From the NCBI GenBank assembly GCA_944363595.1, contig CALVUN010000006.1, positions 1 through 47,701 of the forward strand: a stretch of 47,701 bases of DNA. The letters run 5' to 3'. Positions within the stretch are counted from its first letter, which is position 1, and each line of letters begins with the position of its first letter. This stretch comes from an uncultured Bacilli bacterium (GTDB lineage Bacteria; Bacillota_I; Bacilli_A; RF39; UBA660). This document shows positions 4,822 to 47,701 of the stretch, in pieces. The position numbers and the translations under genes were made by a program. The notes under the pieces were generated by a model, which was not told the origin of the DNA, ran no database searches, and saw nothing but the letters and a program-made list of their open reading frames with translations.

Positions 4822-6384
4822 TTAATATAGTTTGAATTTATAGTGGATTTCTATAGTTTTATCTTCACTTATAAGTATCTTATCAATTAGATTTACTAAT
4901 AAATTTCTACTTGGCTTTTCAAAAAATAAATATTCGTTTATCTTTTTTAATATTTCACCCTTTTCATTATTATCATTTACCAAATCAATATTTTTAAGTT
5001 CATCTTCTAATTCTTTTTTTCTACTTTTCAACTGTTCTATCTCATCTTTATATTTGCTAGTTAAACGTTTAAACATTGCCATATCAATATTACCATTTAA
5101 CCTATCTTCATATATTTTATCTATATATGAGTTATTAGTTCTAATTTTATTATCTAATATATTGATTTCCTTTTGTTTTTTTATTTTTATATTATTTTTC
5201 TTTCTTACCTCTTCTAACTTATAAAAAAATAAACTACTATCTACATACTCCTTACACATTTTTTTAATTTCTTCTAACACAAGGTTTTCCAATTTTTTAT
5301 AATTACAACTGTGTGGAGTACATAAACCATATTTAGAATGAGATATATAGTAAGTACAACAACAGTAATATCTTTTACCATCACTACTTTTATTTATCCC
5401 TATTGCGTGTCCACATTCTTTACATACCATAAAGCCAGAAAGTAATTGAATATTATTACCAGTAGGTTTATTTTTGTTTTTTTTTAACAATTCCCCTACT
5501 GTATCAAATATTTTTTTATCAATTATTGCCTCATGAGTATTTTCTGTAATTATCCACTCATCTTTAGATGTTCTAATTTCTTTTTTTGACTTATAATTTA
5601 ACTTTTTTCTTCTACCTTGAGTTAAATTTCCAATATAAGTTTCATTAGTAAGCATTTCTTCAATAGTTCTAGGGCACCATAAACCATAAGCTGTAGATTT
5701 CATACCTCTATTAAGATTTGCATAAACACTTGGAGTAGGAATATGCTCATCAGAGAATATATTAGCAATTTGTCTTGGACTTTTACCCTCAATTACTAAA
5801 TTAAACATTCGCTCAATAATAGGTCTAATTTCCTCATCAACAATAATTTTATATTTATCATTAGGATCTTTTTTATAGCCATATACTGCTTTCCAACCCA
5901 AAAACTGTCCCTGTTCTTTTTTTGATCTCACGACTTTTCTAATTTTTTTAGATGTATCTTTTAAATAGTAATCATTAAACATTAATTTAAATTGTAAAAA
6001 CTCTAAACCTGGTGTTTCATGTAATGTATCAATATCATCATTTATAGCAATATATCTTATACCTCGTTCAGGAAATATTCTCTCTATATATTCCCCCATT
6101 GAAATATAATCCCTACCCATACGAGATAAATCTTTGGTAATTATAGTATTAACTTTACCACTATCAATATCTGCCATTAGTCTTTTCCAAGAAGGTCTAT
6201 CAAAATTAGAACCAGTAAAACCATCATCGACATACTCATCAATATATTGTAATTTTTCTTTTGTTTTCTCTAAGAATAAATGTAATAAATCTCTTTGATT
6301 TGTAATACTCTCACTTTCCATATTATCGCCATCTTCACGAGATAACCTAATATAAAGAGCAACATTAAATGTCTTACCATTCAT
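4822..6384 (-). CDS. Large serine recombinase (element 1)
   Basis: YIRLS catalytic Ser, DDGFTGSNFDRP, KDLSRMGR, recombinase domain, CKEC...C...C zinc ribbon, coiled coil; intact 520 aa. Confidence 0.95.
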   Translation of the reverse strand: MNGKTFNVALYIRLSREDGDNMESESITNQRDLLHLFLEKTKEKLQYIDEYVDDGFTGSNFDRPSWKRLMADIDSGKVNTIITKDLSRMGRDYISMGEYIERIFPERGIRYIAINDDIDTLHETPGLEFLQFKLMFNDYYLKDTSKKIRKVVRSKKEQGQFLGWKAVYGYKKDPNDKYKIIVDEEIRPIIERMFNLVIEGKSPRQIANIFSDEHIPTPSVYANLNRGMKSTAYGLWCPRTIEEMLTNETYIGNLTQGRRKKLNYKSKKEIRTSKDEWIITENTHEAIIDKKIFDTVGELLKKNKNKPTGNNIQLLSGFMVCKECGHAIGINKSSDGKRYYCCCTYYISHSKYGLCTPHSCNYKKLENLVLEEIKKMCKEYVDSSLFFYKLEEVRKKNNIKIKKQKEINILDNKIRTNNSYIDKIYEDRLNGNIDMAMFKRLTSKYKDEIEQLKSRKKELEDELKNIDLVNDNNEKGEILKKINEYLFFEKPSRNLLVNLIDKILISEDKTIEIHYKFKLY

Positions 6385-45408: not shown

Positions 45409-46060
45409 TATAATATATGAAGATAACCATATCATAGTAGTAGAAAAACCAATAAATATCCCTGTACAAAAAGATAATAGTAAAGATATAGATTTATTAA
45501 CTATAATAAAACAATATCGTAAAGAAAAAGAAAATAAACAAGGAAATGTCTACTTAGGATTAGTACATCGATTAGATAGACCAGTCGGAGGAATAATGGT
45601 CTTTGCCAAAACATCAAAAGCAGCATCAAGACTATCTAAAGAAATACAAGAAAATAAATTTCATAAAACATATTATGCTGTTGTAAAAGGAATAACCAAA
45701 GATAAAGAAGAACTAAAAGATTACTTAATAAAAGATCATAAAACTAATATAACCCATATAACAAATAAAAAAGAAGGAAAATTAGCCCTTCTAAACTATG
45801 AAACAATAAAAACCAAAAATAACTTATCCCTAGTAAAAATAAATCTAATAACAGGAAGATCTCACCAAATAAGAGTACAATTCTCATCACGTAATCACCC
45901 CTTAGTAGGAGATCAAAAATATGATAAAAATCCCACACCCAATACCAATATAGCCTTATTTGCTCAAAGTATAACCTTTACCCATCCCACGACTAAAGAA
46001 CAACTAACATTCACATTAGATCTCCCCAATAAATACCCATTCAATATATTTAATCAATAA
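45386..46060 (+). CDS. RluA-family pseudouridine synthase
   Basis: HRLDRPVGG, TGRSHQIR, GDQKY. Confidence 0.92.
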   Translation: MEKLPKINIIYEDNHIIVVEKPINIPVQKDNSKDIDLLTIIKQYRKEKENKQGNVYLGLVHRLDRPVGGIMVFAKTSKAASRLSKEIQENKFHKTYYAVVKGITKDKEELKDYLIKDHKTNITHITNKKEGKLALLNYETIKTKNNLSLVKINLITGRSHQIRVQFSSRNHPLVGDQKYDKNPTPNTNIALFAQSITFTHPTTKEQLTFTLDLPNKYPFNIFNQ

Positions 46061-46090
46061 TCTAATTTTATACTTATCTATAATATAAAG

Positions 46091-46118
46091 AATATAGAAG
46101 ACCAACATCTTCTATATT
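46091..46118. terminator. Hairpin between convergent genes
   Basis: AATATAGAAGA-CCAACA-TCTTCTATATT followed by a T-tract. Confidence 0.7.
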
Positions 46119-46133
46119 TTTATTTTATTCCTC

Positions 46134-47633
46134 TTAAATTCCAAGAGTGAATGGACTACTTGAACTGCCATCTCCTCCAGTTATCTTAACATCTGATTTT
46201 AGATATATGACCGGGCGAGAAGCGTAAGAATACGCAACGTGGTTGTAGTCGACATAGCCAGAGGTATACACAATAAAAACGCGATTCGAATAACCGGAGT
46301 AAGGCATAAGGGTCCATTGAGTTGAACCATTAAATAAATAATCATTGTTTTTACAATCACTATAACTTGAATCCTTCCAATTATATATTGCTGTTGCTAA
46401 ACAAGACGCTCTATTAGTAGTACTTCCTCCACTTGTGGCATATCCATAATCTGATGGATACATTAATCCTATTTTTCCTACCCAATATGTTGGTCTTCCA
46501 CTATATACTGTTGTTCCTCTTTCTCTTTCATAAAACATACTTGCTGTTACATCATTATAAGTTGATGAACCCCCTAAATTCCATACCGCATCCCCTATTA
46601 ATAACTGAGATTCAGAAGATAAAGTATTATAATAATCACCATTTAAGTAATTTTGTAATGAAGCAGTAGACCAGTTGTTAAAACCTTTACCATAACCAGC
46701 ATCGGGTGCCAAAAACATTACATAATAATCCTTACTTGATGCAGACATACCACTACTAGTACTTCCATCATCCCATAGATAACTACCTATTGACTCATCT
46801 CTTATTATCTTAAGTCTCTTTTCTGTTGGACCACCATTTGTTGTTGCTACATCAAATACCCCAATTATACGCCATAATTCATTATTAAATGATACATAAT
46901 TATTTGGATCAGCTCCCATATATCTTATATTACCATCTGGATCATCATTATTCATAGTATTAGGATTATCCACTAATAATGATTCTATATATCCACTAGC
47001 TGTAGGTACACTATTTTCCCCTGTATTACATACACAAAATAATTTCCATTCACCATTAACTTGTCTACTTTCACATTCATCAGTACATTCTACAGTAGAA
47101 GTACAACTATCATTACCAGCTTCTTCACTAGTTTGAAAACTAGTAATGGGTATCTCACCATCATTATAGATAATATCATCTACTCCTTGACTATCTGTAT
47201 AATATCCTGTTCTAACACCTATTTCTACGGTTATATCACTATCACTAGTATTCTTTATTACCATAGGTACTGTTTTACTAGTATTACTATCTAATGTCCC
47301 TTTAGCAAGCATGGTAAGATCATCTGATACTTGTGCTATTATTACTCCACTAGGTAAGTTACTAGGACTAATCATTTTATAATACATTCCATATGATATA
47401 GTACCACTCATATCATTCTCTACTACAGCATTAAATCTAAGTTTAGATCCTGCACTTACTTTAAGTTCTTGTGTACCATTAATTTTAAATTTATATGTCA
47501 TACTAGTATCTATATCTACCATATTAGTTTCTACACTAGATGTAAACATAGCATAAGTTCCATATATTGAAGCTCCTACTAAAGTTATTATTAGTAATAA
47601 TAATAAATAATATTTCTTTATAAATTTCATCAC
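46134..47633 (-). CDS. Membrane-anchored surface protein with DUF6273-like C-terminal domain; candidate DGR target
   Basis: N-terminal TM; YMGADPNNYVSFNNELWRIIG, KIGLMYPSDY and WTLMP...RPVIYL motifs. Confidence 0.8.
   Translation of the reverse strand: MMKFIKKYYLLLLLIITLVGASIYGTYAMFTSSVETNMVDIDTSMTYKFKINGTQELKVSAGSKLRFNAVVENDMSGTISYGMYYKMISPSNLPSGVIIAQVSDDLTMLAKGTLDSNTSKTVPMVIKNTSDSDITVEIGVRTGYYTDSQGVDDIIYNDGEIPITSFQTSEEAGNDSCTSTVECTDECESRQVNGEWKLFCVCNTGENSVPTASGYIESLLVDNPNTMNNDDPDGNIRYMGADPNNYVSFNNELWRIIGVFDVATTNGGPTEKRLKIIRDESIGSYLWDDGSTSSGMSASSKDYYVMFLAPDAGYGKGFNNWSTASLQNYLNGDYYNTLSSESQLLIGDAVWNLGGSSTYNDVTASMFYERERGTTVYSGRPTYWVGKIGLMYPSDYGYATSGGSTTNRASCLATAIYNWKDSSYSDCKNNDYLFNGSTQWTLMPYSGYSNRVFIVYTSGYVDYNHVAYSYASRPVIYLKSDVKITGGDGSSSSPFTLGI
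46209..46316 (-). other. Putative DGR variable region
   Basis: 36 consecutive codons with none ending in A; 52/108 G+C by hand count, in an AT-rich gene; mostly NNY codons. Confidence 0.7.
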
Positions 47634-47701
47634 TAACTTCCTCCCTATTCTATAAATAGTAAAACATTACCTATATATATTTTCTTACAATATTAATATT
47701 A

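Follow-up and report, generated by a model that had tools for sequence, protein, structure and literature searches.

Why would a gene for a predicted surface protein, in an A+T-rich bacterial genome, carry, near its end, 36 consecutive codons none of which ends in A? This question is raised by the last part of a 47,701-nucleotide stretch of DNA from an uncultured RF39 bacterium of the Bacilli. The stretch (the window in what follows) is the entire contig C6 of a 1.25-Mb assembly, G000, which comes in 83 contigs with a completeness of 91.6%. A first-pass annotation of the window had read the run as the variable region (VR) of a diversity-generating retroelement (DGR) target, rewritten from a template repeat that lies elsewhere, near a reverse transcriptase (RT) gene. 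We find that the VR is a copy of a template on another contig, C8, altered mainly at adenines. That it is the VR of a DGR target gene, serviced in trans from the C8 cassette, is the reading we favour, with a probability of roughly 0.6. The argument turns on the following features of the window.

46134..47630 (ATG start, 498 aa) or 46134..47633 (GTG start, 499 aa), minus strand: target gene, as given by the open reading frame (ORF) and the protein collection
46209..46316, minus strand: run of 36 codons without an A-ending codon, i.e. the VR core plus 3 codons 5' and 2 codons 3'
46214..46308, minus strand: VR core, 95 nt, homologous to the 98-nt template at C8:1127-1224 with ~81% identity
46177..46213, minus strand: the 37 nt directly 3' of the VR, identical in a paralogue on contig C23, candidate initiation of mutagenic homing (IMH) signal

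Read on the minus strand, the 36 codons of 46209-46316 are exactly those quoted in the first-pass annotation, and their third positions are T (16), C (14) or G (6). Elsewhere in the target gene 183 of 463 codons (39.5%) end in A, and the second-longest run without such a codon measures 11 codons. The chance of a 36-codon run is 1.4e-8 per start and 6.4e-6 over the 464 possible starts. C-ending codons are concentrated in the run, with 14 of 36 inside versus 13 of 463 outside (Fisher 7.6e-11). The 108 nucleotides have a G+C content of 48.1%, in line with the 48% first reported, against 27.0% genome-wide. Only 3138 of the 1,238,962 segments of this length in the genome (0.25%) reach at least 48%, and these form 53 clusters. 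The run is also sharply bounded, as first claimed: the codons that border it are CAA (5') and ATA (3'), both of which end in A. The stretch with template homology, 46214-46308, is slightly narrower than the run.

What could have written such a run? A genome search with the end of the target gene returned the C23 paralogue (83% identity over 267 nt), a paralogue on contig C80 that resembles the target only outside the G+C-rich part, and a 98-nt match on C8 that is restricted to the G+C-rich part. The last of these, C8:1127-1224, is a non-coding copy that differs from the VR mostly at adenines, and MutS_I-like, Avd and RT genes follow directly downstream of it. Both the template and the RT that had been predicted to lie outside the window are present in the genome, as are the adenine-specific differences, whose joint absence had been named as grounds for giving up the DGR reading. 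The cassette is laid out as follows.

C8:464-847, in the template's orientation: MutS_I-like ORF (Pfam MutS_I, 32.3 bits; cut-off 20.6)
C8:798-1103, in the template's orientation: small ORF upstream of the template
C8:1127-1224, in the orientation of the cassette genes and matching the VR coding strand: template repeat, 98 nt
C8:1333-1740, same strand as the template: second MutS_I-like ORF (MutS_I, 16 bits, below the cut-off of 20.6)
C8:1733-2071, same strand as the template: Avd ORF, 112 aa (Pfam bAvd, 40.4 bits; cut-off 40)
C8:2068-3111, same strand as the template: RT, 347 aa (RVT_1, 42.2-42.5 bits; cut-off 29.6)

The comparison of template and VR carries the argument. In an alignment with one 3-nt gap, placed within the template's run of five AAC codons, 12 of the 26 adenine sites are changed in the VR, compared with 4 of the 69 remaining sites (Fisher 1.6e-5). 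Three further flanking columns bring these counts to 14 of 28 and 5 of 70 (Fisher 6e-6). When the template is read in the frame of the target, all 28 of its adenines fall in codon positions 1 and 2 (16 and 12, respectively), with position 3 free of them. Over 33 nt at its 5' end and 51 nt at its 3' end, the VR departs from the C8 template at adenines only. Template-derived, adenine-biased differences are what 46214-46308 carries, at the end of a surface-protein gene where a DGR variable region had been proposed. The C23 paralogue (C23:21407-21510) is changed at 12 of 30 template adenines and at 8 of 71 other sites, and is one codon longer than the template. Template and VR homology stop at the same G+C-rich point, and the segment just beyond the VR, 46177..46213, is a candidate for the homing signal. 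Past this endpoint the template and VR of a sister genome, G001, remain alike for ~20 nt with few mismatches, while in G000 the likeness is interrupted by a 4-nt difference.

The RT on C8 is an intact ORF with the catalytic motif YVDD, and it lies 844 nt downstream of the template. Its best solved relative is 8ub7 (E 2e-13), a 328-residue chain that we take to be bRT of the Bordetella phage BPP-1 DGR; a group II maturase (3e-7) follows, with retron and Cas1-fused RTs also behind. The hallmark motif of DGR-clade RTs is I/LGxxxSQ. This reads IGSLTSQ in 8ub7, and IGSVVNQ and IGSMTNQ in the RTs of C8 and of a second cassette on contig C26, with N replacing S. NCBIfam matches of the RT (group II RT, Drt3a) fall far under their cut-offs. 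The Avd ORF has DivGenRetAVD as its sole NCBIfam match (33.8 bits, below the cut-off of 80), and among solved structures it matches nothing meaningful (E ~1). No HRDC match was found among the seven cassette proteins scanned. An ORF of ~100 aa with a shared starting motif is conserved in C8 (798-1103) and C26 (4825-5145). By eye it looks like the beginning of MutS domain I; Pfam finds no significant match (MSV199, E 0.08), and the ORF may be a further accessory gene.

How far is the target from the machinery? RT genes occur only on contigs C8, C26 and C51 of this genome. At its right end C6 shares 127 identical nt (47575-47701) with one end of contig C61, so the two contigs join there, and neither C6 nor C61 holds an RT gene. 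Any cassette must therefore lie at least 18 kb from the target on the 5' side and at least 46 kb from it on the 3' side. The trans arrangement that the first-pass annotation had suggested fits this layout, with template and RT together on C8. By the established DGR mechanism, mutagenic retrohoming, template RNA would be transcribed from the C8 cassette, and a complex of RT and Avd would copy it into cDNA while misincorporating opposite adenines. This cDNA would then replace the homologous part of the target, recoding around twelve surface positions in the final strands of a DUF6273-type, C-type-lectin-like domain.

Relatives provide a second view of the same system. The one other genome of the genus, that of the sister species G001, has the same cassette at a syntenic place, with an RT that is 84% identical. 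There the order is a target gene with a VR end, a helix-turn-helix (HTH) gene on the opposite strand and then the cassette. Its template differs from the adjacent VR at 17 of 32 adenines and 2 of 74 other sites, and from two remote VRs at 14 of 32 versus 4 of 74, and 20 of 32 versus 2 of 74, respectively. Both remote VRs have extra codons at AAC runs. In G061, a closed 1.5-Mb relative, one template matches the VR beside it and a second VR 63 kb away. RTs of the C8 type were found in 34 of the 121 genomes sampled from the family, G000 included, and the record titles of the relatives' metagenome-assembled genomes (MAGs) name chicken, human and mouse gut.

The compositional mark is also shared. 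The comparison covered 80 homologous loci of related MAGs. In 60 of them G+C shows a spike of 0.10 or more at the corresponding C-terminal position, and only 6 of these 60 have an RT within the available flank. Where at least 3 kb of flank is available on both sides (39 loci), 31 are spiked and 4 of those have an RT. The G+C spike alone is a hint of a variable region and no proof of one. The gene at the syntenic place in G001 (G001:C20, L023:1489-3114) has the target's N-terminal module and the C-terminal domain of another subfamily. This combination suggests that variable ends are shuffled among loci, and they appear to be exchanged as modules.

The protein itself fits the role of a DGR target. 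An N-terminal hydrophobic signal or anchor comes first, then a module shared with paralogues, a linker rich in Cys and, at the C-terminus, a DUF6273-like domain; we infer a secreted or membrane-anchored protein tipped by a predicted ligand-binding domain. Three further features belong to this gene.

46137..46850, minus strand: modelled C-terminal domain, 238 aa, predicted DUF6273 with a C-type-lectin-like fold
46965..47585, minus strand: N-terminal module, ~aa 17-223, common to other surface-protein paralogues (tblastn)
46092..46117, minus strand: putative terminator, a 10-bp inverted repeat with a 6-nt loop and a T-rich tail, 17 nt past the stop codon

Pfam DUF6273 matches the target with 27.6 bits (cut-off 23.5), the best stretch covering residues 318-347 only, and NCBIfam finds no family in the target protein or in the small cassette ORF. 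The AlphaFold2 model of the 238-residue domain, built from 75 sequences, has a mean predicted local distance difference test (pLDDT) score of 90.3 and a predicted template modelling (pTM) score of 0.85, and the domain models confidently as DUF6273 with a C-type-lectin-like fold. In this model the VR encodes the last beta-strands (model residues ~179-216), before a conserved ...RPV.YLKSD... segment, and it ends 75 nt (25 codons) ahead of the stop codon. The expected C-type-lectin-like fold with an xRP motif is borne out, in that the protein reads ...ASRPV and the model resembles both DUF6273 and C-type lectin domain structures. The closest solved fold found by VIA-align is 9qa6, residues 60-304 (Z 14.9, 184 residues, root-mean-square deviation (rmsd) 3.1, 18% identity), followed by the C-terminal domain of Legionella Lcl (8q4e, Z 6.3). 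Some forty C-type lectin domains match at Z 4-5.5, including Treponema TvpA (2y3c). Individually these Z values are middling; what counts is how many there are, and that other authors have described DUF6273 as C-lec-like.

The 498-aa form of the target is a singleton in the protein collection, where the cluster look-up gave no near-identical alleles. The N-terminal module is more widely spread: tblastn places it at 82% identity on C76, 93% on C59 and 69% on C5, and there are at least 11 DNA copies in G001. The target gene has its own upstream region beside a divergent gene; the 968 nt ahead of it, checked for a poly-G leader switch, contain no run of 7 or more G or C. On the 3' side a pseudouridine-synthase-like gene converges on the target gene. 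The inverted repeat at 46092..46117 is probably the terminator of the target gene. A consensus terminator scan of 45900-47701 gave 0 sites, passing over this repeat because its stem has just two G-C pairs. Rfam, at gathering thresholds, found 0 families in the C8 and C26 cassettes and in the end of the window.

The C8 cassette is not the only one in this genome. The other two comprise the following elements.

C26:4050-7174: second cassette, with a MutS-like gene, Avd, an RT of 370 aa, a template at 5250-5326 and a small ORF
C26:3771-4838: target of the second cassette, 355 aa, whose VR differs from the template at 13 positions
C51:3180-3635: Avd-like ORF of the third cassette
C51:3583-5373: RT of the third cassette, 596 aa, with the motif YMDD

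The C26 pair serves as a control of the method: its 77-nt homologous stretch contains 13 changes, all of them at adenines. The C51 RT is 42% identical to that of C8 and bears a MutS_I-like C-terminal extension. The template-like element of this cassette (C51:3051-3106) has kept both ends of a second type of VR, described below, and in place of the variable part its middle holds a 31-nt A-poor filler with in-frame stop codons. A broken target fragment on contig C22 has an identical 54-56-nt copy of this element, with the identity stopping at the edges of the template. It seems that a defective template was written, unmutated, into a distant target and broke it, although the pattern may also be an assembly artefact.

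The genome also contains a second and larger subfamily of paralogous C-termini (C5:25650-25859, C5:45242-45418, C44:40017-40223, C35:482-664 and C78:7790-7999). Variable stretches of NNC type, G+C-rich and A-poor, mark these ends, and their G+C-rich 3' boundary is conserved. G000 yielded no full template for these C5-type ends. G001 has at least 17 copies of them and no assembled C51-type RT; among the top 16 of 22 DNA matches there all are coding, none is A-rich and none is a full template. The closed genome G061 gave no DNA match to these ends, and an exact 20-nt string of the subfamily has 0 matches in viral contigs. Counting the ends on C6, C23 and C26, 9 of the 53 G+C-rich 108-nt clusters of the genome are VR-like paralogue ends. 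With three cassettes and several VR-like paralogues, the genome fits the dispersed surface-protein diversification system that the first-pass annotation had envisaged.

Is the copy in the window still being rewritten today? We consider the odds about even. The locus was traced in four public chicken-gut metagenome runs, as low-depth Logan contigs (depth 3-5), none of which spans the window. The sequence recurs unchanged over 46134-46451 in a 318-nt contig from run X1, which may be the source sample, and over 46241-46404 in a 164-nt contig from X5, a run labelled as a synthetic metagenome. A 121-nt contig from X2 covers 46195-46315 with 17 substitutions and no gap. It fits no assembled paralogue (alignment to C23 takes 6 gap columns, and to the G001 copies there are 30-35 differing sites) and may represent either a further allele of the locus or a paralogue that was not assembled. 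An exact 30-nt string from just past the VR gave 0 matches in metagenome contigs. Depth peaks at 46391-46546 and 46859-46936 were discarded as a signal of the locus, as they reflect conserved parts of a large paralogue family.

Several observations weigh against servicing from C8 as we see it now. Four non-adenine differences are clustered in 12 nt (template positions 34-45), which means that the present C8 template is not the exact parent, and the VR is one AAC codon shorter. A strict adenine-only scan, allowing at most 3 non-adenine mismatches per 54-nt ungapped window, recovers the C26 template-VR pair and gives no template for this VR, nor for the C23 or C5-type ends. Relative to that of G001, the C8 template has lost five adenines (in a 12-nt cluster), gained one AAC and come to differ by 4 nt at its 3' boundary; homing could be impaired by any one of these changes. 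The homing signal itself could not be delimited. The C8 contig begins 51 nt from the end of the HTH gene, and the adjacent target that the cassette leads one to expect, present in G001, is absent from this assembly. Lastly, within-sample variation at the VR was not seen in the low-depth contigs. Under servicing from C8, the missing AAC codon and the clustered differences would be put down to slippage in the AAC run, to drift of the template after the last homing event, or to both. The C8 template looks partly adenine-mutagenised, or converted from a variable region.

These same points raise another explanation, which is possible if unlikely: the VR was written by an earlier template of the C8 lineage and is now one frozen allele. 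The four clustered differences and the codon-length difference suit this idea, but non-adenine changes (up to 11 per target) and AAC-linked 3-nt indels are known in DGRs taken as functional (Wu et al. 2018, PMC5758913; this and the other papers cited are drawn on in part). The derived state of the C8 template against its sister, with adenines lost, an extra AAC and an altered 3' boundary, also speaks for it. However, the ~110-nt spacer after the template is near-identical in G000 and G001, where the templates are just ~85% alike, and the RT, Avd and MutS-like ORFs are all intact. The dead template on C51 tells us that template decay does occur in this genome, yet the G+C spike and the adenine depletion of the VR are still sharp at 27% G+C, which argues against long neglect. 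The sequence is identical in the X1 and X5 contigs, as a frozen allele would be, while the gap-free X2 variant over 46195-46315, with 17 substitutions, matches no assembled paralogue.

It is improbable that another template, missing from the 91.6%-complete assembly of 83 contigs, is the true parent, with C8 only its relative. The failure of the strict scan to pass any template for this VR can be read in this way, but in its first 33 nt (5') and its last 51 nt (3') the VR differs from C8 at adenines only. The VR has the length of the sister template (4 codons in the AAC run) and not the 5 of C8, although in sequence the sister template fits worse than C8, with 12 of 65 non-adenine sites changed. 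The assembly does miss DGR parts, e.g. the adjacent target of C8 and the full template of a VR-like family. There are, however, just three RT genes in the genome, and their templates are accounted for. An origin without any DGR, through chance, imported DNA or selection on the peptide or RNA, is scarcely credible: G+C-rich islands do occur elsewhere (the 53 clusters), but at least 9 of them occupy the same position in paralogous genes, the run has a probability of 6e-6 after correction, there is no Rfam match, and a non-coding near-copy beside an RT differs preferentially at adenines.

We return to a VR serviced in trans from C8, and to how unusual this would be. In the survey of Wu et al. (2018), non-adjacent targets occur in 45 of 372 DGRs, and for ten the distance to a target exceeds 100 kb. 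Sixteen DGRs combine avd with a MutS-like accessory gene (MSL), and three RTs are extended at the C-terminus by a MutS_I-like part. In 23% of DGRs there are substitutions at sites other than adenines, up to 11 of them in a single target. Template and VR differ in length in 25 of the 372, and 74% of the indels adjoin AAC, which is ascribed to slippage; in-frame indels are concentrated in a lineage that also has remote targets (PMC5758913). Given these precedents in the parts of the survey drawn on here, every irregular feature seen in the present system has been met before, and novelty of the AAC-codon length differences, which we had considered, is ruled out by the same description.

The closest known systems are the MSL-type DGRs (Architecture D of Wu et al. 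2018, including the Legionella DGR), in which a MutS-like gene and avd stand beside the template and RT. Following the definition in the parts of the survey at hand, the C8 cassette belongs to this type: it has a small MutS-like gene and avd and no HRDC match. The C8 element is likewise chromosomal with no sign of a phage, and a lineage related to the MSL type shares remote targets, non-adenine substitutions and 3-nt indels at AAC runs (PMC5758913). In contrast to the MSL type, two (perhaps three) small MutS_I-like ORFs flank the template here, the C51 cassette has its MutS_I-like part fused to the RT, and the host is a gut member of the Bacilli with a genome of ~1.25 Mb.

Other comparisons are more distant. 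The Bordetella phage BPP-1 DGR (Mtd, bRT, Avd) shares the pairing of RT and Avd, adenine-specific differences between an AAC-rich template and its VR, and a VR at the C-terminal end of a C-type-lectin fold. Unlike the C8 system, it is carried by a phage, lacks a MutS-like gene and has just one target, which is adjacent. The Treponema denticola DGR (TvpA) also has one template and several dispersed chromosomal genes that end in a VR domain with a C-type-lectin fold, and the TvpA structure is among our fold matches (2y3c; Z 4.7, 134 residues, rmsd 6.2). The target domain of this DGR is of the FGE-sulfatase type, unlike DUF6273. Seven non-adjacent targets are cited for the Treponema DGR, and its cassette has the HRDC-containing architecture, not MSL with Avd (PMC5758913).

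Two further likenesses concern the domain. The DUF6273 targets of gut-phage DGRs (tentaclins and tgt2) have a C-type-lectin-modelled domain in which the VR forms surface strands or a hairpin (PMC10743442). They differ in being phage receptor-binding proteins encoded within DGR cassettes, and the tentaclin domain is N-terminal (PMC10743442); here the protein is cellular and secreted, by prediction, with a C-terminal domain and a gene far from its cassette. The closest solved fold, 9qa6, is the N-terminal DUF6273 domain of an IgA peptidase from Thomasclavelia ramosa, like our organism one of the gut Bacillota. In that protein the domain is fused to an M64 peptidase, and the parts of the source used here report neither a DGR nor a ligand for it (PMC12402451), so the match gives no functional lead.

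We found no papers linking DGRs and RF39, and large catalogues such as PMC8144416, here drawn on in part, may well include these elements. Trans-acting DGRs, MutS-like accessory genes and AAC slippage are already described, and what is added here is a little-studied lineage. A bolder picture, which we regard as doubtful, is that of DGRs as a genome-wide network, in which three cassettes in 1.25 Mb feed at least a dozen dispersed lectin-tipped paralogues. If true, loop length as well as sequence would vary, via slippage at AAC runs, and the templates themselves would erode or be overwritten. The C51 template written into C22 would have broken its target, and DGRs would, besides diversifying surface genes, be switches that take them out of service. 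The at least 17 VR-like genes of the sister genome, with neither a template nor a matching RT assembled, would then hint at templates that are perhaps extrachromosomal, or lost and regained.

The locus also illustrates that a composition cue alone, the lack of A-ending codons together with a G+C spike in an A+T-rich genome, can reveal a remote DGR target. Tools that look only near RT genes would overlook most targets of this lineage. For the biology of the group, the results document DGRs with remote targets in gut Bacilli with small genomes. The target family would be a source of candidate adaptive adhesins or receptors in organisms that probably depend on hosts or partners.

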